Source of the DNA: Thainema sp.
Lineage (GTDB): Bacteria > Cyanobacteriota > Cyanobacteriia > Phormidesmidales > Phormidesmidaceae
Direction of reading: 5' to 3'
Assembly (NCBI GenBank): GCA_052168235.1
Contig: JBQLZK010000016.1
Coordinates: 32,001 to 96,000, forward strand
DNA length: 64,000 nt
Shown here: positions 30,693 to 49,225 of the stretch, in pieces
Numbering within the stretch: position 1 is the first letter of the stretch
Layout: every line of letters begins with the position of its first letter
Program-made: the position numbers and the translations under genes
The notes under the pieces: generated by a model
The model's database searches: none
The model's input: the letters and a program-made list of their open reading frames with translations, nothing else
Told to the model about the DNA's origin: nothing

Positions 30693-31415
30693 TCAGCATC
30701 CTTCAAAGATAGGGGTCTGCAAGTGAGGCAAAGCAGAAGCGCTAACACCCTCGACGAGGGTGCGTCGCAGCATTGGATTATCACGATGGGAAAATCCGGC
30801 TTCACTATCGGGGTGAAAGACGACAGCCGTTAAGCCCTTGTCGCCTGTACAAAACCGATGCTCATAGTCTGCGGGAATTAAAAAAATATCCCCCGGCGCG
30901 ATCGCATCACCCCCTTCTGGCGTCTCAATATACCCCTCACCACCCACCACAATGCCGATGCGGTAGCTGGGATGAGTGTGTGCAGTTTGCTCAATTTGAG
31001 GTGGCAGATACATGGCGTGCAGGCAAGGCTCTCCCAGCAGGGGCGGCGGAATCAACACGCTATTAGTGCCGCCGTTGATATAGGCCAAGCGTCCCCGCTC
31101 TTCAATTGGCCCTCCTAAACTAAACACGCCAGCATAGTCAGGGCACGTAATCACGATTCCGGCTGAGGTGGTGCCGTCGAGAACGCCCGCTGCGGGTAAG
31201 CAAAAGTACATGCCAGCTTGCAGGGGAAAAGGCGGCTGAGCCGAGCGATCGCCCCGGTGCAGTTTAGCCTCGCCTTGAAAGACATAGCCAAAATGAGTGC
31301 CCGTTGATGAAAGCTGAAGCGTTGTTTGCTGCCAGCTTCTGAGCGTGGCGGGCAAAATACCGTGGCTTAAATCTTGACAGTGGGGACTGTGAACGGAAAA
31401 GAGCTTCAACGTCAT
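30693..31415 (-). CDS. Cupin-domain protein
   Basis: QTAHTHPSYRIGIVVGGEG and PGDIFLIPADYEHRF. Start overlaps the NACHT stop (ATGA). Confidence 0.8.
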   Translation of the reverse strand: MTLKLFSVHSPHCQDLSHGILPATLRSWQQTTLQLSSTGTHFGYVFQGEAKLHRGDRSAQPPFPLQAGMYFCLPAAGVLDGTTSAGIVITCPDYAGVFSLGGPIEERGRLAYINGGTNSVLIPPPLLGEPCLHAMYLPPQIEQTAHTHPSYRIGIVVGGEGYIETPEGGDAIAPGDIFLIPADYEHRFCTGDKGLTAVVFHPDSEAGFSHRDNPMLRRTLVEGVSASALPHLQTPIFEGC

Positions 31416-33760
31416 AACAAATGTTTCGGAGGTTGAGGAGCTGCGATCGGTGCAAATAGCGCTGCCTGCAATTCTCGGCGTCCCTTAGGAGAGAGCATAC
31501 AGCCATCGCTATTGAGGCATTCCACCAAGAGCTGGGTGGTGTGGTAGTACTGTTTGAGCTGTTCTTTCTCGGCGGGGTTGAACTGCCACGATCGCCCGAT
31601 GTGATGCCGATGTTTGGCGAATTCTCGGGCTTTGTCGGCAATTTCTCTCACGGTTTCATCGTCCTCCGAGTGTCCTTTGAGCCGCTGCAACAGCATTTTC
31701 AGGGTGTCGCGTTCGCTGGCATCCAGACTGCGAGAGTCAAGGGCAATATTGATGGCAATTAGCATCACCGCATTGGCCGAAGGGGCTGCCGTAATTTTGG
31801 CGGTCGGGTCAGTCACATTCTCATCATAGGCTTGGGTGATGGCAATCGCTTCAGCCAGACTGATTTCATCCATCATGCGGGTGAGAAAGCTAGCGCAAAC
31901 CAGGCGATTGGCGGTGCGATCAATGGCTAGGGCGACGGTACGGTTTTCATCAATATCAAAATCAATGTCGAAGCAAAAGGCCCGTACTGCAGCGGGTTTG
32001 AAGTCAGCAAATTCGGGAGCGGCAGCGCGATCGCACACCTCCTGCAAAAACTGCTGCAACCGCTCTGACCCAGCCAGCAGTTGATCAAGCGTCCGCTTTA
32101 GCGGCCCCAGCAGCAGCGAGGCGTCGCGCAGCATTTCTGTCGCTAGCAAGATCACTTCGCGCCAGCGCTTGTCAGATCCATGCGCCGCTAGGTTTTGCAG
32201 TGCCGTTTCGAGCGATCGGCTGTTCTGCACAATTTCTCGTGCCGTAAAGTACTCATGAAACGTCAGGTGAGAAAAGGAATAAATACCCTTGGCGCGCTCA
32301 ATTAGCAGCCCATGTTGCGCTTCAATAGAACGCAGGATTATCTCACTATCAATCTGTAGCGTTTCCGGCTCATCGGCTTCAGATAAGTTACAAATATAAT
32401 CGGCAATATACTGCTCAGTGATCGCTTGTTTGAAGAAATAATCTTTTCTTTGAAAGGTAACGAGAGCGATGTAACTTAATAAGTCTTCTTTACGCAAGTG
32501 TGATAGTTTTTTGTACACCTGATCACGCTGAATACCCCGCTTAGCATCCCATTTTTTTAGCAAGGCATCAACGCCTTCTTTATAGAGTTCGAATCGACTA
32601 TTTGGGAAACCACCCGACTCTTCAAACGCCAGGCAAATCAGCGTTAACAGTAGTGGACTGGTGGCCAGTTGCTTAATCGGAGGATGCTGCTCAAGCTCTC
32701 GGAGAAAGCGCTTGGGGGGAATGGCATGTAGCTGAAACCATTTAGACGCGAAGATAGCAATTTGCTCATCATCAAAATCAGCTACCTCCACTTCGGTGAA
32801 TTTTTCAAAGACGTAGTCCCAGGCGGCGATACGACAGGTTATCAAAAACTGATTGTGGCGAAACTGTTCGGAAAAGCTGCGAATTTCTTTGATCACTCGG
32901 GGGTGATCTTCCGATCGCACTTCATCCAATCCATCGAGCAAAATCAAAGCCCTACCCGCTGCAAAGACTTGATAAAAGTCATCTATCCAGTGATCCTGAG
33001 CGATCGCGAGATCGGCAGGTAAATAATGATTTAAATCGCGGCTGATATACTCTAAAAAATTAGGTTTACCCTCCGCTTCAGCAAAGTCCTTTAATGTGAC
33101 AAAAATCGGCAGGTGATCGGGTTCAAATTGCCCTTCATTACACTGAATCGCCAAATGTTTTAAGAACGTGGTTTTACCCGCACCTGGCTTCCCTAAAATA
33201 ATTAACTTTTTGTAGGTTTTGACGGCATCCAGCGCAGGCACTCGTTCTTCAGCCACCCTACCTAGCCCCAACCGATCAAAATCTTCGGCCTCGCAGGCTT
33301 GTAGCAACTCATCTAGGGTTTGGTGGCGGCGTCCAGTGATTTGCTCCAGCACATTCACGCTGGTGTAAATGTCGTTCACCTGAATGGGATATGACATATC
33401 CAGCACGCGCATCGTGCCGCAACGCTCTTGCACACTGGCGTACAGCTTTTGGCGCAAGGTTTGCACCAGCGCACTGAGACTACCCAAATCAGAGTTAACG
33501 GAGTGGGTTGGGCTAAGGTGCGATCGCGCTACAGACGGCGGTACCAACCCAGCAATTTCTTGCCAGTTCAGCCCCAATTGTTCGCACACCCGTATAAAGA
33601 TGTTCTGGGAAACCGCTTCGCCCTGAAAAAACTTGGTAATGGGCTGACGACTGCAACCGACTAGCGCCACGAGATGTTTTTGGGTCCATCCGGCTTTCAG
33701 GAGGGCCTGATGGGCAGTCTCAATTCCTGTGGGGGATGCGGTGAGGGAGGGCTTAGCCAT
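31412..33760 (-). CDS. HTH-NACHT (STAND) NTPase
   Basis: N-terminal XRE-like HTH (WTQKHLVALVGCSRQPITKFF), Walker A GKPGAGKTT, Walker B LLDGLDEV, ITCR, SPLLLTL, FSHLTFHEYF and WREVILL. Confidence 0.9.
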   Translation of the reverse strand: MAKPSLTASPTGIETAHQALLKAGWTQKHLVALVGCSRQPITKFFQGEAVSQNIFIRVCEQLGLNWQEIAGLVPPSVARSHLSPTHSVNSDLGSLSALVQTLRQKLYASVQERCGTMRVLDMSYPIQVNDIYTSVNVLEQITGRRHQTLDELLQACEAEDFDRLGLGRVAEERVPALDAVKTYKKLIILGKPGAGKTTFLKHLAIQCNEGQFEPDHLPIFVTLKDFAEAEGKPNFLEYISRDLNHYLPADLAIAQDHWIDDFYQVFAAGRALILLDGLDEVRSEDHPRVIKEIRSFSEQFRHNQFLITCRIAAWDYVFEKFTEVEVADFDDEQIAIFASKWFQLHAIPPKRFLRELEQHPPIKQLATSPLLLTLICLAFEESGGFPNSRFELYKEGVDALLKKWDAKRGIQRDQVYKKLSHLRKEDLLSYIALVTFQRKDYFFKQAITEQYIADYICNLSEADEPETLQIDSEIILRSIEAQHGLLIERAKGIYSFSHLTFHEYFTAREIVQNSRSLETALQNLAAHGSDKRWREVILLATEMLRDASLLLGPLKRTLDQLLAGSERLQQFLQEVCDRAAAPEFADFKPAAVRAFCFDIDFDIDENRTVALAIDRTANRLVCASFLTRMMDEISLAEAIAITQAYDENVTDPTAKITAAPSANAVMLIAINIALDSRSLDASERDTLKMLLQRLKGHSEDDETVREIADKAREFAKHRHHIGRSWQFNPAEKEQLKQYYHTTQLLVECLNSDGCMLSPKGRRELQAALFAPIAAPQPPKHLL

Positions 33761-33850
33761 GAAGTCGCGATCAAATGGTAACTCAAACTCTATCTTACTT
33801 AGCGCAGCCAAAAGACATGCATTTTCGGCAAATCCATGCCAAAAATGGGC

Positions 33851-33928
33851 TTTACTCATCATTAAACAGGATTTACTTGACAATTAAATGATAAATAAAT
33901 AGGATTTACTCATTCATTATTTATCATT
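33851..33928. promoter_or_regulatory. Operator-like repeat array in the divergent NACHT/kinase promoter
   Basis: 12-bp IR AATGATAAATAA (33887-33898) / TTATTTATCATT (33917-33928). AGGATTTACT at 33868 and 33901; TTTACTCAT at 33851 and 33905. Confidence 0.5.
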
Positions 33929-36620: not shown

Positions 36621-37246
36621 TAACGGACTTTCAAAGATAGCATGAAGCTCTCGATTAGTGCAAGCAGCTTCCATGTACCGAAATCGTTGCCGATTATGTA
36701 TTCAATTTTACTCTATGCAATGCTCTGTAACATAAATTTGCTTGCACATTTTTTGCCAATTGAATTGGAACGTGAGATGTGAGCAGTTCCCCGGCTGAAC
36801 GTTCAAACCTAACTAGCGAAGAAGCAGTAGACGTTATCCAATCTGAAGCAGGGGTTTGTTCAGCGGATTTTACGTATTGCGTCGTTTTTGAGCACGTTTG
36901 AGGTAAATATGCAAGCCTTGTTCTCACTGAAAATGTCTGGTAATATCCGGCCCTAGATGTGTGTTCTATGTAGAAGAAAAACTTTTTCTGTTTGTGTAAG
37001 TACGTAGAAACTAATGATAAACTCCAGTAAATTCCATCATTCCTCGTAATGACTTCAGTGGAATTACTTGGAAAGGCATCATTGCTCAGAATCATCAGCG
37101 GTGTGGCTCTGCTTATTCAATTAAATAAAACGATAAGCAGATAAGAGGTAGTTTTCAGAAATAATCTGTTCGATTAATCTTTGACGGCTTTTTATTCGGG
37201 CGTTACGATTGCAGATTTCGTAGTGTGTTAAGCACTGTCAGTTGCA

Positions 37247-38266
37247 ATGTCGTCGTGTGACCAGGTGTGTGGAGTGAACTTATTAATACGTAAGGCCAGA
37301 TTTGTCTGGCTATTTTTGGCAGGTCTGATACTGAGTCTGCTACTCGGCTATGCTCAGCAAGCGTCATTTCCGGCGGTTGCTCAGGAATCGCAGACCGCAA
37401 CGTTGACGGTTGAGAATGTTGCAACGGCCAGCTTTACCCCTCCAGGTGGGACTCTTCAAACCGTGACATCCAATACCACAACGTTTACGGCAGTGGTGGA
37501 AGAGTCCGGCTTGCAAATTGTTAAGACCGCTGATCGGTCTGCCGCTGAGCCAGGTGACGTTGTCGTATATCGACTGCTGATCCGCAACACTGGCACTGTT
37601 CCTATCAATAATGTGACAGTGGAAGACGAACTGCCGCTCGGCTTGCGCTACGTTGAGGGTTCGGCACGGGGAGCGATTGGTGTAGAGGGCAATTCAGCCG
37701 AATTTGCGATCGCAGATCCCACCGCCACTGGGCGCACACTGCAATTTGTCACAAATCAAACGCTGCTGCCGGATCAATCGATCTCGATTGCCTATGCGGC
37801 GCTACTGACGCCTGACGCAATTCGAGGATCGGGCCGCAACTTGGCAGTGGCATCAGGTACGACACCGAACGGTCAGACCATCACCAGTAATACCGCCAGC
37901 CATCGCGTCTTCATTCGCCCCGGTATTTTGTCTGATTGCGGCACGATTGTGGGTCGGGTGTTTGTGGATAAGAACTTTGACGGACAGCAGCAGCCCGGTG
38001 AGGCGGGTGTGCCAAATGCGGTCATCTTCATGGACGATGGCAACCGGATTGTCACCGATGCCGACGGTCTGTTCTCGCTGGCTAACGTGATTGCCGGAAA
38101 TCGCTCCGGCACATTGGATCTGACAAGCTTACCGGGATACACGCTGGCTCCAAATCTCTACTGGATTGAAGGCAATAGCCAGTCCCGTCTTGTTCGACTT
38201 CAGCCGGGTGGTTTGGCTCGGATGAACTTTGCCGTCACGCCTGCGTATGGGGAAGGACAGCAATAA
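37247..38266 (+). CDS. Secreted DUF11 (isopeptide-type Ig) plus SdrD B-like domain protein
   Basis: Signal peptide ending AVAQ; LQIVKTADRSAAEPGDVVVYRLLIRNTG..VEDELPLGLRYV; GRVFVDKNFDG.Q.PGE.GV...TDADGLFS. Exact start uncertain. Confidence 0.85.
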   Translation: MSSCDQVCGVNLLIRKARFVWLFLAGLILSLLLGYAQQASFPAVAQESQTATLTVENVATASFTPPGGTLQTVTSNTTTFTAVVEESGLQIVKTADRSAAEPGDVVVYRLLIRNTGTVPINNVTVEDELPLGLRYVEGSARGAIGVEGNSAEFAIADPTATGRTLQFVTNQTLLPDQSISIAYAALLTPDAIRGSGRNLAVASGTTPNGQTITSNTASHRVFIRPGILSDCGTIVGRVFVDKNFDGQQQPGEAGVPNAVIFMDDGNRIVTDADGLFSLANVIAGNRSGTLDLTSLPGYTLAPNLYWIEGNSQSRLVRLQPGGLARMNFAVTPAYGEGQQ

Positions 38267-41200
38267 TGCGATATCTCATGAATGTCAAGTTAGGACTCTG
38301 GTTGCTCTCGTCAATCCTGGCGATCTTTGGCTCCCTCTCGGCGGCTTCTGCGCAGGAGGTGGCATCCGGCTCCGCTGAACCGCCTCGGCTGTCGGACTGG
38401 AAAAACGAGGCGGAGGCGTCGAATACGGCAGAGGATCTGTTGCGATCGCGCCAGATCACGCCCAGTGAGCCGCTGCCTGCGGAGGCAACCTTCAGCACCA
38501 CGACTGAAGAATTGGGCTTTGATCCGGCTGAGGAGGAGGGATTTCATCTATCAACCACAGATGAGGTTGAACCCCAAACAGCTCAGCCAGTACTAGTTCC
38601 CCATCCGGCGACCAATCTCTTTGATCAGGAAACAGGCGGACGGGTGCTGTTTCCCGTGGGCGAACAGGCGACTCCCGCCAATCGGCAGCGGGATATCACA
38701 GGCAGCTCGACTGGAACTGGCATCGGCAACAGCACTAGCAATAACGATCTGTTCGAAGCGCCGTTCAACAATGCATTACCCGGTTCCTCTGATCCGTGGG
38801 GAGCGGGAGTGGATGAGATTACCGGGGAGCGCTTCCGACGGCCCGATGCGGGTGTCTCCGAACCAACGGCCTATGAGGGACTATTTGACTTACCGGATAA
38901 TCCAGTCCTGCCAGCACCTGCGGCTCCTGGTGGGGAAGATGAAGGATTTCGCATCGAAGTTTATCCAATCGGGTTGGGTCGTGCGATCGCAAATGGCCGT
39001 TCTCTAGTTGAACTGGAAGGGATCGTGCTTGGCCCGGACGGGTCGCTGGTCTTAGAACCCGTCATCGTCACGCTGACGGCAACGGCGGGTGAATTTCCAG
39101 GGGCCGACCAGGAACCGGATCGACCGGGCTTCCAGGTGGTGGCGCGGCAGGGTCGCTTTGTGGCGGGTTTGCAGTCAAGTCTAGACGCGCAGCAGGTGCG
39201 GGTGCGAGCTGCGATCGCGCGCAATGATCTGCTGGACGCGCTGGAGTTAGACGAAGAGGAATTCCGCGAGCTGTACGAAGACGATCGCTTCGGTACGGGG
39301 CTGTATGAGAATGAGTACGCTACGCCAACGGCGGTTGCGCCAGGATTAGAGGCGTTTACGCAGGTTGAGTTTGTCACCGAGCTGCGGCCTACGCTGCTAG
39401 CGGGTACGGTCAACCTGCGGATTGGGGAAGCGGGTACGGACTACTGGGGCAGCTTCCGCGAGTTTCTCAATCCGGATGAACTGGATGATGGCGTCGCGTT
39501 TGACCTGTCCTCCGCCGTCTTTGGCATTGGCTCCATCGGCGAGTGGCAGTTCCTGGCTGCCTACAACAGCGAGCGGACGCTGAACGAAACCTGCGACGGT
39601 GGCGATCGGCTGTTCCGCGATACTCAGTTCTGTGAAGATCAGTATCCGGTCTATGGCGACAGCTCAACCGTAGATACGCTGACGCCATCCCAGGACAGCT
39701 TGTTTATCCGCTTCCAGCGGGATTCGCTTACTCCGGGAGCCGAACCGGACTTCTTCATGTGGGGCGACTACGGCACCAGCGAGTTTTCCCGCGCCTCACA
39801 GTTGTTCACGGCTACGAGTCGGAATCTGCACGGCTTCAAGGCTAACTACAGTCTGGGCAATCTCCAGCTCACGGCGCTATACGCTGACAACGTAGACGGA
39901 TTCCAGCGGGACACGATTCCACCCGATGGCACCAGCGGTTACTACTTTGTCTCACGCCGACTGGTGATTCCGGGCAGTGAACAGGTCTTTATTGAGTTTG
40001 AGGAGCTGGGCCGTCCCGGCGTAGTGGTGGAGCGGGAACGACTCCAGCGGGGGCCAGATTACGAAATTGACTATGACCGGGGCGCAATTATGTTCCGGGA
40101 TCCCATTCAGGCCACCGAATTTGACATTTTTGGTAACTCCCTGGTGCGCCGAATTGTTGTCACCTACCAGTATGAAGGCGGCGGCGGTGGCGACTCCGAC
40201 CTGATAGCGGGTCGCCTTCAGTACAACCTGGCCTACGGTTTTGACCGACCGAGCTGGGTAGGCGTTAGCTACTTAAATGAAGACCAAGGCGATCAGGACT
40301 TTGAGCTGTTTGGCTTCGACTTCCTGCTGCCGATTGGTGATGTAGCCTTCATCGAAGGGGAATATGCCCACTCTGACCACACCTCACTGACGTTTGGCGA
40401 TGTTTCGGGCAATGCTTATCGTCTAGAGGCCAGCGCTAATTTCAATGAGGTCATTGCCCTGCGCGCCTACTATCGGACGGTGGATGAAACGTTTGCCAAC
40501 GATTCCACGTTTAGCTTTACGCCGGGACAAACCCGGATCGGTGGAGCGCTGTCAGCGGCGGTTACGTCCACTACACGGGTCAATCTCCAGTACGACTTCG
40601 AGGAAAACTTCGGCATTGCGCCGCTGGTGATTACCGATTTAGACACGCTGCTCAATCCGGGCTTACAGCCAATCCCCGGTTCAGCGGTTGACAATACGCT
40701 GAGTACCTTCCGAGTCGGAGTTCAGCAGGAAATTGGTCGAGCCATCTTCAACTTGAGCTATGTGGATCGCGATCGCAACGATCGCACCCGACCCGATTCT
40801 TCACTGGATACCAATTCCAGTCAGCTCGTTTCTCAGTTGACGGTGCCGCTGGCGGAACGGCTGACGTTTCAGGCATTAAATGCGCTTAGTCTCAGCGATG
40901 GCGACGATCCGCTCTATCCCGACCGGACGGCCCTGGGCTTAAACTGGGCGGCATTCCCTGGCGTCAACTTGCGGTTGACCCAGCAGTTCCTCTACGGCGA
41001 CTCGTTTGATGACACGTCTATCACCAGTTTAGACACGGTGATTGAGCAGGAGCTGGATGAAAATACGACGCTGCGCAATCGCTACTCGATTATTGGCGGC
41101 GTCAACGGCATTCGCGCTCAGTCTGCGCTGGGCCTGAATCACGCCTGGGTGGTTGCGCCGGGACTGCGCCTGAATCTGGGCTATGAGCGAATTAGCGGCG

Positions 41201-42255
41201 ATATTTTTGCCGACACGGCTGTGGGGCAGCAGTATCGCCAGCCCTACACCGTCGCGCAAAGCTCTGGCGTCTTGGGATTACAAGAGGCAGACAGCTACAG
41301 CATTGGCCTTGACTACACCGATGACCCCGATTTCAAAGCCAGTGCGCGATTCGAGCATCGCGATTCTGAAGCGGGCGACAATACGGTTTGGTATGCGGCG
41401 GCAGCCGGACGCTTGACGCCGGAACTGACGGTGCTGGCCCGCTATCAGCAGTCAAATTTCTCCAACCAAATTCTGACCGGACTGCTGAGCGATACGTCCA
41501 CGCTGCGGGTCGGGTTAGCCTACCGCGATCCGGACAGTGACGCATTCAACGCCTTACTGCGCTACGACTATCGGCGCAATCCGGGTACCACACCTGATTC
41601 GATTTTGGTGGATTCCGGTCGCGGTTCAGAGGATCACACCTTCGGGCTAGAGGCCATCTATGCACCGACCTGGCGCTGGGAGTTCTATGGCAAGTATGCC
41701 CTGCGCTACACCAACTCGTTTATCGCCGATGATTTGACCGTTTCCAATGCAATCCATCTGGCGCAGGGTCGGGTGGCCTATCGCCTGGGCTATCGCTGGG
41801 ATGTAGCGGGCGACATGCGCTGGATTGGTCAAACCGATTCGGGCTTTAACGAAACCGGATTTGCGCTAGAGCTGGGTTACTATGTGACCCCTGACTTACG
41901 ACTGGGCGTTGGCTATAGCTTTGGTGCAGTCGATGATGATGGTTTCGAAGGCTATCGCTCCGATGGTGGGCCGTATCTGGCGGTCAATCTGAAGGTGAAT
42001 GAGCTGCTACAGCGCTTTGGCGCACCGGATATTTCACCGGAACAGCTTCAGGAAACGGCGATTGAGGCCGATGCCAATGTGGCGGATGGGGCGGATGAGG
42101 ATGAAGCCGATGTCTCCGCCGAGGCAGAACCCATAGATGTCAGTTCATCAGCGGCTGGATCGGCGGCTGATGCCCTGGCGTTTGCGTCTCATTCAGGACT
42201 AGAAGCTGATTTGGAGTCAAAGCAGGCACTCAAACTTGGGCTAGGGGAGGAGTAA
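38266..42255 (+). CDS. Large predicted outer-membrane beta-barrel protein with periplasmic Ig-like N-terminal part
   Basis: Signal peptide (ASAQ) and a long series of amphipathic strands with aromatic ends (e.g. LRLNLGYE, WEFYGKYALR, LELGYY..PDLRLGVGYSFG). Start overlaps the upstream stop (TAATG). Confidence 0.75.
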   Translation: MRYLMNVKLGLWLLSSILAIFGSLSAASAQEVASGSAEPPRLSDWKNEAEASNTAEDLLRSRQITPSEPLPAEATFSTTTEELGFDPAEEEGFHLSTTDEVEPQTAQPVLVPHPATNLFDQETGGRVLFPVGEQATPANRQRDITGSSTGTGIGNSTSNNDLFEAPFNNALPGSSDPWGAGVDEITGERFRRPDAGVSEPTAYEGLFDLPDNPVLPAPAAPGGEDEGFRIEVYPIGLGRAIANGRSLVELEGIVLGPDGSLVLEPVIVTLTATAGEFPGADQEPDRPGFQVVARQGRFVAGLQSSLDAQQVRVRAAIARNDLLDALELDEEEFRELYEDDRFGTGLYENEYATPTAVAPGLEAFTQVEFVTELRPTLLAGTVNLRIGEAGTDYWGSFREFLNPDELDDGVAFDLSSAVFGIGSIGEWQFLAAYNSERTLNETCDGGDRLFRDTQFCEDQYPVYGDSSTVDTLTPSQDSLFIRFQRDSLTPGAEPDFFMWGDYGTSEFSRASQLFTATSRNLHGFKANYSLGNLQLTALYADNVDGFQRDTIPPDGTSGYYFVSRRLVIPGSEQVFIEFEELGRPGVVVERERLQRGPDYEIDYDRGAIMFRDPIQATEFDIFGNSLVRRIVVTYQYEGGGGGDSDLIAGRLQYNLAYGFDRPSWVGVSYLNEDQGDQDFELFGFDFLLPIGDVAFIEGEYAHSDHTSLTFGDVSGNAYRLEASANFNEVIALRAYYRTVDETFANDSTFSFTPGQTRIGGALSAAVTSTTRVNLQYDFEENFGIAPLVITDLDTLLNPGLQPIPGSAVDNTLSTFRVGVQQEIGRAIFNLSYVDRDRNDRTRPDSSLDTNSSQLVSQLTVPLAERLTFQALNALSLSDGDDPLYPDRTALGLNWAAFPGVNLRLTQQFLYGDSFDDTSITSLDTVIEQELDENTTLRNRYSIIGGVNGIRAQSALGLNHAWVVAPGLRLNLGYERISGDIFADTAVGQQYRQPYTVAQSSGVLGLQEADSYSIGLDYTDDPDFKASARFEHRDSEAGDNTVWYAAAAGRLTPELTVLARYQQSNFSNQILTGLLSDTSTLRVGLAYRDPDSDAFNALLRYDYRRNPGTTPDSILVDSGRGSEDHTFGLEAIYAPTWRWEFYGKYALRYTNSFIADDLTVSNAIHLAQGRVAYRLGYRWDVAGDMRWIGQTDSGFNETGFALELGYYVTPDLRLGVGYSFGAVDDDGFEGYRSDGGPYLAVNLKVNELLQRFGAPDISPEQLQETAIEADANVADGADEDEADVSAEAEPIDVSSSAAGSAADALAFASHSGLEADLESKQALKLGLGEE

Positions 42256-42264
42256 AGGATCAGC

Positions 42265-44400
42265 ATGAACTCAAAGGCATCGATATCGAAGCGCAAAGTT
42301 AGCATTCATTCCCTAGGCTGGGCCGTTGTACCCACTCTGCTGCTGACCGCCAGTCCAACGCTGAGTCAGGCTGATGCGGATTCAGAGTCCGCCGCAGTCG
42401 AAACCGTTCCGGTGCAGGCAATTGTCAGCAGCGATCAGGATACGGTAGCACCCGATAGTGGTTTGACGCTGCGTGAAGCAATTCTCTTGGCCAACGGTGA
42501 ACTTGCGATCGCAGATCTGAGTCCCGCCGAACAGGCCCAAGTTGAAGCATTAGCTCCCAGCGCTACTTCGCAGATTGGCTTTAATTTACCTACCGATCAA
42601 ACCGTCATTCAGCTTCAGGAAATGCTGCCGCCGTTAGCCTCGCCTGGACTCGTACTGGATGGTACAACGCAAGCGGGGTATGACGCCGAGACCTCTGCGA
42701 TCGCAGAAGTGGATATGCCGATTCCACTAGTCAGCATTACGCCTGCGGCAGGTCAGGAGGTACTGCGGGGGTTAACCATTGTGGCCGATGGCATCACAGT
42801 TAGAGGATTGAGCCTCTACGGCTTCACCTCCACGATTGGCCGCACCGCAACCACGCCACCCGCTGATATCTTCATCGCTCACCCCGATCCCCCGCCCGAC
42901 ACTAGCGATCAGCAGCCTCCGGCCCGGTCGTTTGCGTTCATTAATGAGCGAGACACCCCGCCCCAGGACGTCACCATTGAAAATAACTGGCTGGGCATTA
43001 TGGCCGATGGTGATTTCCCAGCTCAACCGTCTTCGTTTGGTGTTTACGTCTTCAACAGCCAGGGCGCAACCATCCGCAATAACTTTATCGCCAACCACGA
43101 AGGCAGCGGCATTATCACCTCCGTACGGGCGCAAAACATGGAGGTGATCAACAACGCCATTGTCGGCAACGGGATCGCTGGCATGCCCGACGGCATTCGC
43201 TTGGAAGGTGACATCAGCGACTCGCTAATTCAGGGCAACGTGATTTGCGGCAGCGATGGCAGCGGTATCTATGCCTTCAAGCCCGATGGTTCCGTGGAGA
43301 TTCGCGAAAACGACATCAAGTACAACGGTCGCCGCCTGCGTCGCGCTGCCGTATATCTAATGGGCGACAATCACCAGGTTTTAAATAATGCGATTACCTA
43401 TCAGACAGGTTCCGGAGTTGCGATCGCAGCCTACCCACCCAGCATCGGCAATATTATTCAGGGCAACCAGTTCCTCGGCAATGAGGGCCTGAGTATTGAC
43501 CTGGTCATGTTTAACGCCACGGGTGTGCAGGAATACGCCTGGGGCGACGGCCCCAATCCGCCGCGTAATTCGGTAAACCGCCGTCAGGACACAGGCAATG
43601 CCGCTATTAATTCGCCTCAGCTACAGCTCGATGAGGCAGCGGCAGCAGGTGGCTTAGTGACACTGCAAGGGGAAGCCGCACCGGATGCTGATGTCGTGAT
43701 TTACCGCGTTGCGCCTGCCTTTGATCCACCGACTAACCGCTTTCCCGGCTATGGCGATCTGCTAGAGCCAATTGCCTCTGTAAAAGCGGATGCTGATGGT
43801 TTATTTTCCACTACAGCGGAACTGGAACCAGGCGATCTGATTAGCGCGATCGCAACCCTGCCCGAATATGGCACCTCAGAACCCTCGCCCTTTGTCGCCA
43901 TCGGCAATGCGGGAACTCCCGTGCCAGCCACACCCGAGATTCCTCAGTGCGTCACAGCCCCTGCGCCTGAGCCTGAACCACCCCCGGCTCCCGAACCGCT
44001 GGTGCTCAACGTGCCGCGCAATGTCCACTTTGCCCTCGATCAAGCCACTCTCAGCACGGAAAGTCAGGCCGTGCTGGACGAAATCGCGGCAGTCCTGCTG
44101 GAATATCCGTTTATTACGGTTGAACTGCAAGGCCACACCGATCCGCGAGCCAGCTATCAGTACAACTTGGATCTCTCCAACCGTCGCGCTCTGGCTGTCC
44201 GTAATTACCTCCTGTCCCAAGGCGTCGCCAACGAGCGGATGACGATTCGCGCCCTCAGTGAATCGCAGCGCGCCACTACGGGTGATAGCGTGGTCGATTA
44301 CGCCCGCGATCGCAGAGTCGAAGTCATCTTCCGCGACCTGCGCGGCCTTGATATTGTCTTTGAGCGCCAAGAAGGCGACCTGCAAATTGAAGGTCGATAG
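42265..44400 (+). CDS. Right-handed beta-helix protein with C-terminal OmpA-like peptidoglycan-binding domain
   Basis: LTLREAI, repeats I.NN.I..N..GI, Pro-rich linker, then VHFALD, LQGHTD, NLDLSNRRA and DRRVE. Confidence 0.85.
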   Translation: MNSKASISKRKVSIHSLGWAVVPTLLLTASPTLSQADADSESAAVETVPVQAIVSSDQDTVAPDSGLTLREAILLANGELAIADLSPAEQAQVEALAPSATSQIGFNLPTDQTVIQLQEMLPPLASPGLVLDGTTQAGYDAETSAIAEVDMPIPLVSITPAAGQEVLRGLTIVADGITVRGLSLYGFTSTIGRTATTPPADIFIAHPDPPPDTSDQQPPARSFAFINERDTPPQDVTIENNWLGIMADGDFPAQPSSFGVYVFNSQGATIRNNFIANHEGSGIITSVRAQNMEVINNAIVGNGIAGMPDGIRLEGDISDSLIQGNVICGSDGSGIYAFKPDGSVEIRENDIKYNGRRLRRAAVYLMGDNHQVLNNAITYQTGSGVAIAAYPPSIGNIIQGNQFLGNEGLSIDLVMFNATGVQEYAWGDGPNPPRNSVNRRQDTGNAAINSPQLQLDEAAAAGGLVTLQGEAAPDADVVIYRVAPAFDPPTNRFPGYGDLLEPIASVKADADGLFSTTAELEPGDLISAIATLPEYGTSEPSPFVAIGNAGTPVPATPEIPQCVTAPAPEPEPPPAPEPLVLNVPRNVHFALDQATLSTESQAVLDEIAAVLLEYPFITVELQGHTDPRASYQYNLDLSNRRALAVRNYLLSQGVANERMTIRALSESQRATTGDSVVDYARDRRVEVIFRDLRGLDIVFERQEGDLQIEGR

Positions 44401-44481
44401 AGTTGCGCGTACTAGCACTTTATTTCGCTGTTCTCTTAAGTCTCAAGTCTCTAGTTTCTAAATCTGAATTGGATTGAACTC

Positions 44482-47400
44482 ATGGGTTTGCCATTCCGAA
44501 CGTCACAACTCGCATCTATTGCGTCACAGCCGTCTTCGACCCGCCAGCGTAGCTCATTCTCATTACACAAGACGACGAGCCGTTCTGGTCGATTTAGCTG
44601 GTCGCGCTTTCTACGCAGTCTTGTACTCGTTGTGATTTTTGCGATCGCAACGTTTGGCTATGCACCTCCATCCCGTGCTCAGGCTACAGCTCCATTCAAT
44701 TGTGATGGAACGTTATACATTACGAACGCTTCAACCGATCAAGATCCAACTCGTTTAGATTTCTTAGATACTAGCGGCGATTTTGACATCGATCCCGTTT
44801 TGAATCAAACGCCACCTTCATTTACTTATAACGCAGCTGGTTTCCGTCCCCAAGATGGCTTTATCTATGCCATTCGACCCAATAACCGGGGCCTTCCTGC
44901 CCCTGCTGCTGCTACACAACCTCGCTCAACTATCTATCGAATTGATAGCACGGGTGCAGTAACCCCACTAGGCGTACCACCAGGCATCACTAATGCCGAT
45001 TATTTTGCTGGGGATGTTGGACCAAACGGTACGCTTTACGTCTATGCTCCGGTTCAGATCACAGCAGGCAGTGCACCATCAGGATTATTAACAGAAATAG
45101 ATGTAACGACAGCTCCGCCAACTGTAATCGACTCTTTTACGGTTCAACGTACGGATAACAGCAATGTCCCAGAACTATTCGATGTTGCCTTCAACCCTGA
45201 AGATGGTCAACTTTATGGTTTTGATCGGCAAGAAGGCGATATTGTCCGAATTGATGTCAATACTCCGATAGCTCCTGGCGTACTTGGTGCAGTGCCACTT
45301 GCCGCAACTGGTAATGCCCCCGGTACAGAAATTGTTGGAGGAACATTTTTTGATGCCTTCGGACGGATATTTCTCTATGCAAATAATGGCCAACTCTACA
45401 GAGGGCAAGTTGAGCCTGGCAACAACTTCATTCAATTTGAATTACTTTCTAGTCCACCAGGGGTCGGCAATAACGATGGTGCATCTTGTCCTTATGCCCC
45501 TCTAGTTGAGAAAACAGCATCCAGTACTGTTGTACAAGCTGGAGACATTGTCACTTATACATACAGCTTTACAAACTCTAATTTTGTTGACTTACAGAAC
45601 GTCACATTCACTGATACGCTGCTGACAAATGGTGCGACAGACGGTCGGACATTCGTTCCAGGATCGCTGCAAACTATCAGCGGCAATATCTTAAATGGCA
45701 CAACGACAAACAACTATGGTGTGGGTGCCGATGCCAATAATCTTGTGATTAACGGCATTACTCTATCTCCTGGCACAACGGGTGCGTTTTCGGTAGATGT
45801 GCAAATTGCTCCTGGCACACCAGCAGGTACCTTCGAAAATCAAGCTGTTGTTGAAACAACAACGGCTACTATCATTCCGCCTGGTGGTGGCCCACCGACG
45901 CAAATCAATCCTCGAATCGTAGCCCGAACCGACAATCCGAACACACCCGATAATTTTCCAGACCCCACCCCAATTGACACAACACCCTCTGCAACGGGGG
46001 CAATCGGTATTGCCAAACGGGCTGGTCAACCTGCGGTTAACAGCGACGGTACGATTGATATTCAGTACTCGCTGATCGTTGAGAACTTGGGATCAGTCAC
46101 GGTCAACAATGTCCAAATTACGGAAGACTTTACCCAAGAAACCTTTATCTCTCCAGCCACGTTTGAGATTATTCAGTCTCCTCGAAGTGTGGATGGATTA
46201 ACTCCGAATCCGAATTTTGCTGGAACACCGGCTAATCCAAACCTGCTGCAAGGTAATGACTCATTAGCCCCTGGAGAGATTGGTTCTGTTTTCTTCATTG
46301 TGCGGGTCACACCCAATGGTAATTATGGCCCCTACAACAATACTGCGATCGCAACTGGCACCGATCCGAGTGGTAATCCAGTTACCGATCAATCAAACGA
46401 TGGACAAGAGCCAGACCCCAATAACAACGGTAATCCTGGCGATCCAAATGAGAATACACCGACTGTTGTTACGCCACAGATTGCAGACTTAGCAGTTGAA
46501 AAAGGAGTCGACAATCCAGATCCCAACATTGGCGATACGATTACCTACACCATTACCCTGCGTAACTTGGGGCCAAGTGATACAACCAACGTCACGGTTC
46601 AAGAAGACCTGCCCGCTGGTTTTACGGCAACCGCTCCGGCGGGGACAACCTACAATGCAGCAACGGGAGTATGGTCTGTTCCAGATCTAGATGCAGGTCA
46701 GTTTGTTGTCCTAACCCTCCAGGGAACCTTCGACGGTACGCCGTTTGAAAATGTCGCTGAAATTACAGGTTCGAGTGTGCCTGACCCGAATCTAGCCAAC
46801 AACATATCAAGGGTTCAAGTTCCATCTGTAACCGCAGATTTATCGTTGGAAAAAACGCTAGTTGATACCGACGAAATTGCAGTTGGCGATGTGATTACCT
46901 TTGAGATTGAGCTGACTAACAGTGGCCCTGATACGGCAACTAATATTCAAATTGCCGATGATTTTCCAGATGGATTTGAGTTTGTCGAAGCTCGACCAGC
47001 GACAGGAACCTACGATGAAACAACCAATATTTGGTCAATTGCCAGTTTGGCTAGCGGAGAAAGCACCTCTCTACTATTAACTGGCCGACTCACGGCTGAT
47101 TCTGTCACCAACGTGGCCGAAGTTTCGAGTGTTGACCAAACGGATCCGGATTCGACACCGAATAACCGCGATCCGAATGAGGATGATTACGGCACGATTA
47201 CTGTTAGTATTTCGCCTGATTTGATTTTGCAGAAGCGAATTACAGCGCTGGTTCAAGATGGGGCGGTAACTCGCTTTACTCAACCCGTCGCTAATCCGGT
47301 GCGGCCTGGATTTGTGGGTGAGGTGTCGTTACCTCCATCGGCTCAAGTCACCAGTCAAGACGTGGTGGAATACACCATCTATTACTTGGCGAGTGGCACA

Positions 47401-47667
47401 ACGGCTAATAATGTCCAGATTTGCGACGCCATTCCCGTTGGAACCTCCTATGTTGCTAACACTCTGTCAACCGCATCGGGGACTGCAAATCCCACTCAGC
47501 TCAGCGATGCTAATGATGGAGATGGAGGACAGTTTTTGCCTGAGTTAACGCCTGCACCTCAGCCTTGTGCAAATAGCATGAATCCCAATGGTTCGGTACT
47601 AGTTAATGTCGGTAATATTCCAGCCGGACAATCTGGGTTTATTCGGTTTAGCAGCCAAGTTGATTAA
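44482..47667 (+). CDS. Secreted adhesin-like protein: DUF6923-like propeller plus about five DUF11 repeats
   Basis: Signal ending SRAQ; FNCDGTLY...NNDGASCP; repeats VEKTAS..GDIVTYT, IAKRA, DLAVEKGV..GDTITYTI, DLSLEKTL..GDVITFEI and DLILQKRI. Confidence 0.85.
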   Translation: MGLPFRTSQLASIASQPSSTRQRSSFSLHKTTSRSGRFSWSRFLRSLVLVVIFAIATFGYAPPSRAQATAPFNCDGTLYITNASTDQDPTRLDFLDTSGDFDIDPVLNQTPPSFTYNAAGFRPQDGFIYAIRPNNRGLPAPAAATQPRSTIYRIDSTGAVTPLGVPPGITNADYFAGDVGPNGTLYVYAPVQITAGSAPSGLLTEIDVTTAPPTVIDSFTVQRTDNSNVPELFDVAFNPEDGQLYGFDRQEGDIVRIDVNTPIAPGVLGAVPLAATGNAPGTEIVGGTFFDAFGRIFLYANNGQLYRGQVEPGNNFIQFELLSSPPGVGNNDGASCPYAPLVEKTASSTVVQAGDIVTYTYSFTNSNFVDLQNVTFTDTLLTNGATDGRTFVPGSLQTISGNILNGTTTNNYGVGADANNLVINGITLSPGTTGAFSVDVQIAPGTPAGTFENQAVVETTTATIIPPGGGPPTQINPRIVARTDNPNTPDNFPDPTPIDTTPSATGAIGIAKRAGQPAVNSDGTIDIQYSLIVENLGSVTVNNVQITEDFTQETFISPATFEIIQSPRSVDGLTPNPNFAGTPANPNLLQGNDSLAPGEIGSVFFIVRVTPNGNYGPYNNTAIATGTDPSGNPVTDQSNDGQEPDPNNNGNPGDPNENTPTVVTPQIADLAVEKGVDNPDPNIGDTITYTITLRNLGPSDTTNVTVQEDLPAGFTATAPAGTTYNAATGVWSVPDLDAGQFVVLTLQGTFDGTPFENVAEITGSSVPDPNLANNISRVQVPSVTADLSLEKTLVDTDEIAVGDVITFEIELTNSGPDTATNIQIADDFPDGFEFVEARPATGTYDETTNIWSIASLASGESTSLLLTGRLTADSVTNVAEVSSVDQTDPDSTPNNRDPNEDDYGTITVSISPDLILQKRITALVQDGAVTRFTQPVANPVRPGFVGEVSLPPSAQVTSQDVVEYTIYYLASGTTANNVQICDAIPVGTSYVANTLSTASGTANPTQLSDANDGDGGQFLPELTPAPQPCANSMNPNGSVLVNVGNIPAGQSGFIRFSSQVD

Positions 47668-47684
47668 GTTCAGCAGCTAAACAC

Positions 47685-47719
47685 CACAAAAGGGGAGCAC
47701 TTGGTGCTCCCCTTTTGTG
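47685..47719. terminator. Bidirectional terminator ending the DUF11 operon
   Basis: CACAAAAGGGGAGCAC-ttg-GTGCTCCCCTTTTGTG. Confidence 0.75.
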
Positions 47720-47776
47720 ATCGATCTAATCATGCCATCGCCATAATTTTTTGGGTCATCTGGTCGAGGCATCAGC

Positions 47777-49225
47777 TCAGCAGTTTTGGGTGCGGATCTG
47801 TTTCAGCAAGTCATAAAACGGCTGCCAGTTGTCGTCTACCGCAATCGGTTCCCAAACCGCTTCAATTTCTGGACGAACTAAAACAGTCATTGGATTATGA
47901 CGTTTGAGTCGCTGTGCTACCTCATCCATTTCATCATTTGTAAGATGGGCGAGACAGTGCTGATAGAGCAAACGCCACTGGGCGAGGCATTGAGCCGCCT
48001 CTGGATCAGACTGTTCCATCACAGCAGGGAAGATCGACTGTGCATCCTCACGCCACTGGGGCAAAAACTGCTGACGGAGCTGAGCAAAAAACTCGTGGTA
48101 GCCCACTTCCGTTTCACTTAGCAGCCGCAGTATCGATTCGAGCAGTTCATCGGCCATTTCAATCGGCAGATGGTCGTAGCCCAAGTCGCCAAAGCCTAGA
48201 CGGTTCAGCATTCGCTGTCGGTAGGTGGCGCGATATCGATCCTCGTAACCTTCCAGTCCAGCCTCTAGATTGGCGGCTGGAATCACCATTTTGAGCGGGA
48301 TTTGCAGCTTCTCCAGGTTCCATCGGCACATCAGCGGCTGATTGCCGTAGCGATAGCGCCCCATGTAGTCAAAATAAGCCGCAGTAAAGCGCGGGTCATA
48401 GGTATTAATAAACGCATAGGGGCCGTAGTCAAAGCTTTCGCCCGTAATGGACATATTGTCTGTGTTTAGCACCGCATGGCAAAAGCCAACGGACATCCAC
48501 TGTGCGACTAAGTCGGCCATTCGCTCAACCAGTTCAGCGTAAAAGCGGGCATAGCAATCTGGATCGCCCAGTAAATGAGGATAGTACTGCTCAATTACGT
48601 GGTCGAGCAGAATTTGCACCAGGTCTTTGCGCCCGTAGTAGTGCAGCCGCTCAAATGTGCCAAAGCGGATGTGCGATCGCGAAAATCGCACCATGACTGA
48701 AGACCGAGTGGGCGAGGGTTCATCACCGCGCCAGAGGGATTCGCCCGTTTCGACCAAACTCAAACAGCGGGAGGTGCGTACGCCTTGATAGTGCAGCGCT
48801 TCGGCAGCGAGGACTTCTCGTACGCCGCCTTTCAGCGTCAAGCGCCCATCGGCAGTCCGTGAGTAGGGGGTGCGGCCAGAGCCCTTGGTGCCAAAGTCAT
48901 ACAGCTCGCCATCCATGCCGCGCACTTGACCATAAATGAAGCCCCGACCATCGCCCAGGAATGGGTTATATTCGCCAAACTGGTGGCCGTGATAGCGCAG
49001 CGCGAGAAAAGGACGAATCGCTTCGAATTTGCCAAACGCGCCGATAAAATGCTCGTCTGTGACTTGCTGTGGATCGAGACCAATTTGCGACAGTAGGTCA
49101 TCATTGCGAAAGCGCAACTGATGCTGCGGGAATTCTGCCGCGTCAACGATGTCATAGTAGTCATCGCCGAGAATTTCGAGCGCGGGTTCGTAGTCAAGCT
49201 GATGCAGAAAGGGATTGTGAGTCAT
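47777..49225 (-). CDS. selO: SelO/YdiU protein adenylyltransferase
   Basis: [35 protein letters not shown] and [20 protein letters not shown]. Confidence 0.92.

Follow-up and report, generated by a model that had tools for sequence, protein, structure and literature searches.

Can a single isopeptide-forming domain be shared between the products of two genes? This question is raised by a tight cluster of four genes, P0001 to P0004, in a 64,000-nucleotide stretch of DNA from Thainema sp. (contig JBQLZK010000016.1, positions 32,001 to 96,000 of the forward strand), which is called the window below; all coordinates are positions in it, and all four genes are on the + strand. P0001 (37247..38266), identified from its open reading frame (ORF) and translation and from Pfam and NCBIfam matches, encodes a small DUF11 protein of 339 amino acids (aa), the putative anchor and strand donor. 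P0004 (44482..47667) encodes an adhesin of 1061 aa, whose last domain is truncated. We consider it likely, with considerable confidence, that an N-terminal β-hairpin of P0001 completes the last domain of P0004 by strand complementation. The fuller reading, in which a CnaA-like (DUF11/CLIPPER) isopeptide domain is shared out over two genes of the same operon and is covalently locked, is the one we prefer, and it seems probable rather than assured. The anatomy, conservation, gene linkage, co-occurrence and predicted interface that bear on this question were computed directly.

The orphan hairpin of P0001 and the C-terminal end of P0004

P0001 begins with a signal peptide (residues 1–45, 37247..37381), which forms a hydrophobic helix at residues 10–39 in the model and is probably cleaved at about AVA/QE (residue 45/46). 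In an alignment of 24 sequences, an A-x-A-like site precedes the conserved hairpin. The hairpin (residues 49–87, 37391..37507), delimited by conservation, by the AlphaFold2 (AF2) model and by the co-fold interface described below, contains the sequence TLTVENVATASFTPPGGTLQTVTSNTTTFTAVV (residues ~52–84, nucleotides ~37400–37498). An orphan strand pair after the signal peptide, TLTVENVATASF...VTSNTTTFTAVV, had been noticed in the original prediction and is present at that place, with strands predicted at residues 49–57, 60–63, 71–74, and 78–87. Asn57 (37415–37417), the candidate reactive residue, and Ser75 are invariant in the alignment, and Phe63 and Asn76 are found in at least 90% of the sequences. 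An Asn residue also occupies the Asn57 column in all 58 distinct donor hairpins detected with a hidden Markov model (HMM) and aligned with hmmalign. A Pfam scan of residues 46–90 gave no match. When 8000 candidates from a set of 5.8 billion proteins were scored against P0001, 2021 had E ≤ 0.001, and the best 120 of them are cyanobacterial proteins of about 320 aa.

The hairpin is followed by a complete DUF11/CLIPPER domain (residues 88–222, 37508..37912), which scores above the thresholds of PF01345 (39.6 bits, cut-off 24.6), PF24346 (51.2 bits, cut-off 27) and TIGR01451 (60.9 bits, cut-off 24). The Lys/acidic/Asn triad previously pointed out in this domain corresponds to Lys93 (37523–37525), Asp127 (37625–37627) and Asn198 (37838–37840), all of which are invariant (24/24), and the spacing from Lys to Asp is 34 residues versus 33 in the CLIPPER crystal structure 9IFR. 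The AF2 model of P0001 has a mean predicted local distance difference test score (pLDDT) of 69.8, with 85–95 in the DUF11 domain, 67–82 in the hairpin and 26–64 in the C-terminal domain. The model matches 9IFR in Foldseek with an E value of 7.4e-7 and a target-side template modeling (TM) score, TMt, of 0.65, which gives the DUF11 domain a CnaA-like immunoglobulin (Ig) fold. It also resembles the two-domain Gram-positive pilins PilA and BcpA, the basal pilin EbpB, and GBS80. The C-terminal SdrD_B/CnaB-like domain (residues 225–339, 37919..38263; PF17210 E 1.6e-4, below the cut-off) holds the densest invariant columns in the alignment and is thus the most conserved part of the protein. The linker SDCGT between the DUF11 and C-terminal domains contains Cys231 (37937–37939), which is invariant (24/24) and is the sole Cys residue in the mature protein; it may serve in an intermolecular disulfide or in some other way.

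P0004 consists of a signal peptide, a DUF6923 domain, four DUF11-type domains that are complete and a terminal one that is truncated, with family matches to PF21959 (1.7e-28), PF01345 (6.4e-65) and TIGR04226, "isopeptide-forming fimbrial" (2.7e-10). The DUF11-like terminal domain, the putative acceptor, covers residues 911–1061 (47212..47664) and includes Lys918 (47233–47235), Cys981-Asp982 (47422–47427) and Cys1029 (47566–47568). The C-terminus of P0004 should be noted. The chain stops at GFIRFSSQVD, and the earlier observation that the last repeat ends at FIRFSSQVD without the closing N-x-A strands is borne out by the internal repeats, which extend past the equivalent strand (..ENVAEITG....NN.S.V.V), and by complete relatives, which continue there too. 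Hence a full Lys-Asp-Asn triad in one chain is not found in the terminal domain: Lys918 and Asp982 are present, and the Asn strand is absent. In the co-fold described below, the Asn would come in trans from Asn57 of P0001.

The last 166 residues of P0004 gave 507 matches with E ≤ 0.001 among 1.84 billion representatives; the best 150 were taken and 149 were re-scored locally. The acceptor domain is end-aligned within three residues of the C-terminus in 100 of these 149 representatives, and about ten of the remaining 38 end within five residues. The other 11 are giant proteins made of many repeats, and several of them have a tail that is both hydrophobic and basic. The complete repeat in these giant relatives continues after ...KFKVRVD with a loop and then with I.N.A..V and SNEV, which indicates that the acceptor stops exactly where the Asn-bearing strand pair begins. 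Conservation was evaluated with hmmalign on 129 distinct terminal domains from 156 fetched loci and the window. The domain envelope reaches the end of the ORF in 122 of the 129 and ends within three residues of it in 128. Lys occupies the Lys918 column in 125 domains, the other four being gaps, and Asp occupies the Asp982 column in all 129. A search of the Protein Data Bank (PDB) sequences with the acceptor profile gave no match. The passenger part varies among the cargo relatives (545–2035 aa) with the terminal domain kept.

Because Lys and Asp are strictly kept in one protein and Asn in the other, and considering the chemistry of DUF11/CLIPPER domains, an isopeptide lock between Lys918 and Asn57 is plausible, as judged from sequence and by analogy. 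Two cysteine residues of the acceptor are also kept, Cys981 in 128/129 and Cys1029 in 122/129 domains, and both lie in or beside the predicted hairpin interface; a disulfide between them may shape the acceptor groove. The N-terminus of P0004 itself (..LYITNAS..) was considered as a donor and was rejected, since it is the start of the DUF6923 match and no second donor was found with the hairpin HMM in the genome.

Predicted pairing and genomic association of the two proteins

The original prediction had proposed that the orphan strands complete the last domain of P0004, and co-folding of the two segments, together with the truncation in 128/129 acceptors, synteny, co-occurrence, joint loss in one genome and uniqueness in the source genome, all of which are described here, supports this proposal. 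With P0004 residues 891–1061 (43-row alignment) and P0001 residues 46–90 (24 rows) as input, the interaction prediction score from aligned errors (ipSAE) was 0.86, 0.85, and 0.83 in three runs (0.85 overall), versus 0.05, 0.00, and 0.00 in the controls. Of 157 solved complexes, 116 come up to the mark used for ipSAE, as do 2 of 215 mismatched pairs; these counts apply roughly here because custom alignments were used. The models contain 115–118 contacts with a run-to-run agreement of at least 94%, and the pLDDT of the partner is at least 81.

In the predicted complex, residues 59–64 of P0001 (hairpin strand 1) pair with residues 976–982 of P0004, the strand ending with Cys981-Asp982, and residues 75–78 (hairpin strand 2) pair with residues 916–920, the strand of Lys918. 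The interface is formed by P0001 residues 53, 55–66, and 71–85 on the hairpin side and by P0004 residues 912–920, 947–968, 973–983, 985–988, 1027–1030, 1046, and 1060–1061 on the acceptor side, so that the last two residues of P0004 and the region of Cys1029 touch the hairpin. This pairing corresponds in the model to the canonical C–F and A–G pairing of an Ig sandwich, with the hairpin supplying the penultimate and last strands. The co-fold thus supports binding without showing it. We know of no complex of this kind; solved structures cover the fold class well, and part of the co-fold confidence may therefore stem from likeness to complete domains.

The operon is kept across cyanobacteria in the order P0001, the giant outer-membrane barrel P0002, in some loci the OmpA-like P0003, and then the cargo. 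Among 80 loci anchored on P0001, all of them cyanobacterial, 52 have at least 9 kb downstream. All 52 have P0002 downstream of P0001; 38 of them also have P0003, and 45 have an acceptor-bearing gene downstream. Conversely, 75 loci were anchored on the acceptor, again all cyanobacterial, and 37 of the 45 with at least 9 kb upstream are preceded on the same strand by P0001, P0002 or P0003. The acceptor-bearing proteins are diverse in their N-terminal and middle parts, and the terminal domain alone is common to them. Tandem pairs of acceptor genes occur in about a dozen operons (L089, L096, L099, L106, L113, L125, L130, L136, L142, L151, L153, and L154), and one base protein may serve several adhesins.

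Co-occurrence is given as plain counts in a sample of 301 genomes across the phylum, in which related genomes are not independent of one another. With the acceptor profile, 42 genomes gave a match, strong in 38 and weak in 4 of another class, and the P0001 profile matched 41, namely the same 38, the genome G128 and two of the weak-acceptor genomes. P0001 is accordingly found in 38/38 genomes with a strong acceptor, and the acceptor in 38/39 genomes with a strong P0001 match. The copy numbers track each other, with, for example, three P0001 homologues and four acceptors in each of G268 and G278. G128, which is 99% complete, gave no acceptor match even at E ≤ 1. Its single P0001 homologue is a 1301-aa fusion to the P0002 barrel (L156 5657–9562, G128:C47) and has no hairpin after the signal peptide; the hairpin is thus absent where the acceptor is absent. 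This direct fusion of P0001 with P0002 also suggests that the C-terminal domain of P0001 is located at the N-terminus of the barrel.

In the source genome, P0001 is the single donor (52.5 bits, against 9.6 for the next best) and P0004 the single terminal acceptor, which suggests that the window encodes a minimal form composed of a tip adhesin and a base protein. A genome-wide family of cargo proteins sharing the acceptor domain was considered and is ruled out for the source genome, where the domain is in single copy; it holds in relatives.

The P0001 homologues fall into two types, type A of about 320 aa, the form in this window, and type B of 500–1150 aa with extra domains. No P0003 match is found in the type-B loci listed. 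A loose pattern for the N-x-A...SN hairpin directly after the signal peptide is found in 76/76 type-A and 18/20 type-B proteins, and the two misses retain N-[EQ]-A-T. The hairpin HMM, applied to all ORFs of the fetched loci, detected 20 further proteins of 820–940 aa with an N-terminal donor hairpin, in type-B loci only. They have the hairpin ISNTATATYEDPN...TSNTVTVTV and the C-terminus ..F.F.R[KR]VN immediately before the stop or a close variant, one being five residues longer, and they lie upstream of the long-form P0001 homologues, for example in L072 (865 aa, starting at nucleotide ~5700), L050, L063, and L073. Their terminal domain is too divergent for the acceptor HMM at 1e-5. Judging from their sequences, they look like candidate polymerizing fiber subunits. 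No such donor-plus-acceptor protein of 820–940 aa was found with the hairpin HMM in the type-A loci or in the source genome.

Weighing of the alternatives

Several observations weigh against a split domain. According to the original prediction, the hairpin mimics the closing strands of the DUF11 domain. Comparison of the hairpin with the rest of P0001 by hhalign gave a single match, which sits exactly on these closing strands (Asn57 on Asn198, and Ser75-Asn76 on Ser213-Asn214), with P = 0.074. In a search of the 39,396 ORFs of the genome with an HMM of the closing strands, the hairpin is outside the 25 best-scoring rows; the HMM recovered only the DUF11 domain of P0001 itself (66 bits, next best 10.1 bits). 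The claim of mimicry is thus right as to where the alignment falls, and by sequence alone the likeness is weak and within chance. The case that the split domain exceeds chance is made by conservation, synteny, co-occurrence and the co-fold, not by pairwise likeness. The acceptor domain itself is below the Pfam DUF11 threshold (PF01345 E 0.0065, 17.2 bits vs 24.6), with a match spanning only positions 11–61 of the 114 in the profile, and its kinship to DUF11 is drawn from the relatives with complete repeats, not from the profile score. In the co-fold, the lowest-error contacts of Lys918 are Ser75, Asn76, and Thr78 and not Asn57; contacts of this kind are expected for the predicted A–G pairing and are no proof of a triad. 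Even in controls that lack the hairpin, the acceptor has a pLDDT of 76–80, and the model thus gives no sign that the domain is unfolded when alone. Inter-protein covariation (mutual information with average product correction, 50 pairs) is weakly enriched at the contacts (Mann-Whitney p = 0.036), in a set where related sequences are not independent of one another and many of the contact columns do not vary. As for gene linkage, 7 of the 52 P0001-anchored loci have no acceptor within reach, and 8 of the 45 acceptor-anchored loci (L084, L091–L093, L098, L100, L109, and L116) have no operon within 10 kb upstream, suggesting that some cargo is encoded away from the operon. Finally, the fold of P0002 matches generic large barrels only (SlpA, MtrB, SprA, LptD, and FimD; Foldseek TM 0.10–0.31).

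How far these points favor another explanation depends on which part of the reading is replaced. If the strand complementation is real but stays non-covalent, the mode known from chaperone-usher and type V pili, so that an isopeptide never forms, the whole interface evidence (co-fold, truncation, linkage and co-occurrence) fits equally well. Most donor-strand systems are non-covalent. Moreover, the N35A mutant of the Clostridium perfringens pilin BsaA reportedly still gave SDS-stable oligomers (bioRxiv 10.1101/2024.11.04.621531). What speaks for a bond is the identity of the kept residues: Lys918 (125/129), Asp982 (129/129), and Asn57 (58/58) are the residues of CLIPPER chemistry, and the same positions are reported not to be conserved in DUF11 domains that lack the bond (PMC12617251). 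A buried Lys without a partner would also be costly. A purely non-covalent assembly is on balance rather unlikely. The complementation in trans could also be illusory, the hairpin being what is left of a decayed repeat, or else lengthening an edge of P0001's own domain, and the end of the adhesin being a self-sufficient sorting or secretion signal for P0002. A sorting domain would likewise show a uniform C-terminal end, and this explanation agrees with the pLDDT of 67–82 of the hairpin strands in the P0001 monomer model, with that of 76–80 of the acceptor without a partner, and with the insignificant mimicry of the closing strands. It does not readily account for the co-fold score of 0.85 against 0.05 in the best control, with canonical pairing, for a truncation exactly where complete relatives continue into the Asn strand pair, for an invariant Asn57 in a supposed remnant, or for the absence of the hairpin precisely in G128, the one genome without an acceptor. 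We judge it improbable.

A different pairing of the parts, where the true acceptor of the hairpin is another protein (the Ig-like domain of P0002, or P0003) or the adhesin receives its strands from elsewhere, gains some room from the co-fold having covered one pair, P0004 with P0001, and from the presence of an N-terminal Ig-like domain in P0002. Nevertheless, the genome search gave a single donor and a single terminal acceptor, no N-x-A...SN hairpin is seen by eye at the mature N-terminus of either P0002 or P0003, the N-terminus of P0002 is poorly conserved, and G128 keeps the barrel and loses the hairpin. Such a pairing is therefore very improbable. The domain split between P0001 and P0004 with a Lys918–Asn57 lock remains our preferred reading.

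Proposed assembly and comparison with known systems

On the preferred reading of a split domain, P0004 would carry strands A to E, with the reactive Lys918 on the first strand and the catalytic Asp982 on the CDxIP strand, and would end before the last two strands. The mature N-terminus of P0001 would supply the penultimate and last strands as a hairpin, with Asn57 in the place of the Asn that forms the bond. Once exported by Sec, the hairpin would insert into the open sandwich and complete the fold, with strand 1 of the hairpin antiparallel to the Asp982 strand and strand 2 alongside the Lys918 strand. The Lys918–Asn57 isopeptide would most likely form autocatalytically with loss of NH3, tying the C-terminus of the adhesin to P0001. 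P0001, a complete pilin-like protein by itself, could not accept a strand and would thus act as a base or terminator. Its conserved C-terminal domain may dock to the P0002 barrel, which probably also passes the adhesin across the outer membrane, and P0003 may tie the assembly to peptidoglycan. With one donor and one acceptor, the source genome is expected to form a single tethered adhesin rather than a fiber.

The conserved protein P0002 (38266..42255, 1329 aa) is predicted to consist of a variable N-terminus, an Ig-like domain and a giant outer-membrane β-barrel, and its ATG overlaps the stop codon of P0001 as TAATG. It has no Pfam, NCBIfam or PDB sequence match, and its matches in the ESM Atlas are only unnamed or generic clusters. 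The AF2 model (residues 225–1275, mean pLDDT 69.8) shows at least 32 long strands after the Ig-like domain at the N-terminus. The matches of relatives begin at about residue 200–240, consistent with the poor conservation of the N-terminus. The model thus points to a giant outer-membrane barrel of no described family, which may represent an undescribed outer-membrane assembly or translocation family. P0003 (42265..44400, 711 aa) has a right-handed β-helix (PF13229, 2.3e-13) and a C-terminal OmpA-like peptidoglycan-binding domain (PF00691, 8.8e-18).

The genes flanking the operon are unrelated and encode a Ser/Thr kinase, a 183-aa protein without a family, and, convergently, SelO and an aldo-keto reductase. 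Farther upstream, an 823-aa ORF on the − strand (31412–33883) contains the P-loop GKPGAGKT. Read by eye, it looks like a STAND/NACHT-like NTPase whose N-terminal region resembles a helix-turn-helix, and it seems to have no relation to the operon. In three metatranscriptome runs of one study, a fraction of 0.12–0.15 of the sampled words was present, and no reads matched 37000–47800 with a likeness of at least 95%.

The known autocatalytic isopeptide domains act as intrachain crosslinks, and the split SpyTag, SnoopTag, and DogTag are regarded as inventions of engineers. If the preferred reading is true, a split CLIPPER domain conserved in a phylum would be a natural use of the tag/catcher trick to join two gene products, and cyanobacteria, and diderm bacteria generally, would have a sortase-free way to attach adhesins covalently. 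Two further consequences would be an outer-membrane machine for assembly that belongs to no described family, and an orthogonal pair of hairpin and catcher ready for use in biotechnology. Subunits of relatives that carry both a donor and an acceptor would then form a covalently linked fiber, in contrast to the single tethered adhesin of the source genome. The chances are about even that the pair is a natural two-gene Tag/Catcher that reacts spontaneously, and that a so far undescribed pathway of surface assembly, which needs no chaperone and is built on a giant outer-membrane barrel, has this pair as its coupling principle.

In the chaperone-usher pili (Fim/Pap), the N-terminal extension of a subunit completes the preceding subunit by donor-strand complementation, and FimI or PapH acts as a terminator. 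The cyanobacterial pair is similar in that, by prediction and in the co-fold, an N-terminal extension completes the incomplete Ig fold of another subunit, and in that the adhesin would be distal and a base subunit without strand-accepting ability would stay at the outer-membrane barrel. It differs in that two strands, not one, would be donated, in the probable covalent lock, and in the far larger barrel. Neither a PapD-like chaperone nor an usher of the PapC/FimD family was found with Pfam and NCBIfam in P0001–P0004 or the flanking genes, and P0002 compares with FimD only at TM 0.19–0.31.

The coupling had been called SpyTag-like in the original prediction. The tag/catcher analogy is retained, but SpyTag is a single strand with Asp, and the closest engineered analogue is DogTag/DogCatcher with its Asn-bearing hairpin. 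DogTag/DogCatcher is an engineered split of RrgA domain 4, in which the Asn-bearing closing hairpin reacts with the remaining domain (PMC8878318). Both systems have a hairpin tag with the reactive Asn and a catcher that keeps the Lys and the catalytic acid, for a Lys-Asn isopeptide that is so far a prediction in P0001/P0004. DogTag/DogCatcher, as described there, is a man-made split of a different Gram-positive adhesin domain with a Glu catalyst, whereas the split described here would be natural, involve two genes and be conserved across the phylum.

BsaA of C. perfringens, a member of the TasA family, forms an intermolecular N35-K74 bond catalyzed by E56 after donor-strand insertion; the bond is supported by mutagenesis, in which alanine mutants lose the oligomers (bioRxiv 10.1101/2024.11.04.621531). 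The order of events resembles the one proposed here: an N-terminal donor with Asn meets an acceptor with Lys and a catalytic acid, and insertion is followed by an autocatalytic intermolecular isopeptide. BsaA has the TasA fold, which is not CnaA-like, donates a single strand, and is a Gram-positive homopolymer without an outer-membrane barrel and without separate tip and base proteins. No Pfam match to the TasA (peptidase M73-like) fold was found, and the folds seen here are of CnaA-like and CnaB-like form. The archaeal thread protein Saci_0406 likewise combines donor-strand complementation with an intermolecular isopeptide through an Asn side chain, which is bonded to the N-terminal α-amine of subunit n+2 and not to Lys; the fold is unrelated, and the thread is an archaeal homopolymer with no outer membrane (PMC9715654).

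The closest relationship is with the CLIPPER domains, the new name of DUF11. Crystal structure 9IFR has a Lys-Asn bond with an Asp catalyst, and in CnaA-like domains the bond spans the two sheets, from the first strand to the penultimate one (Protein Sci 2025, PMC12617251). The middle domain of P0001 is a member, with its score above the Pfam threshold, its Lys-Asp-Asn triad and its match to 9IFR. The putative split domain has the Lys on the first strand, the Asp on the D-x-x-P strand and the Asn on the penultimate strand, and differs in that the Asn strand pair is on a separate polypeptide from the Lys and Asp, whereas the bond in CLIPPER domains is intrachain. The text of that article contains neither "split" nor "cyanobacteri" and treats intramolecular bonds only. 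Searches of the accessible literature, with subscription journals and bioRxiv supplements being outside reach, gave no publication that deals with this system of cyanobacteria or with a CLIPPER domain split in nature. By analogy, the P0001/P0004 pair would work like the tip and terminator of a chaperone-usher pilus with a BsaA- or DogTag-like lock and would be a member of neither family. Donor-strand complementation and CnaA-type isopeptide chemistry are kinds already known, and the machine that surrounds them here may be new in kind.

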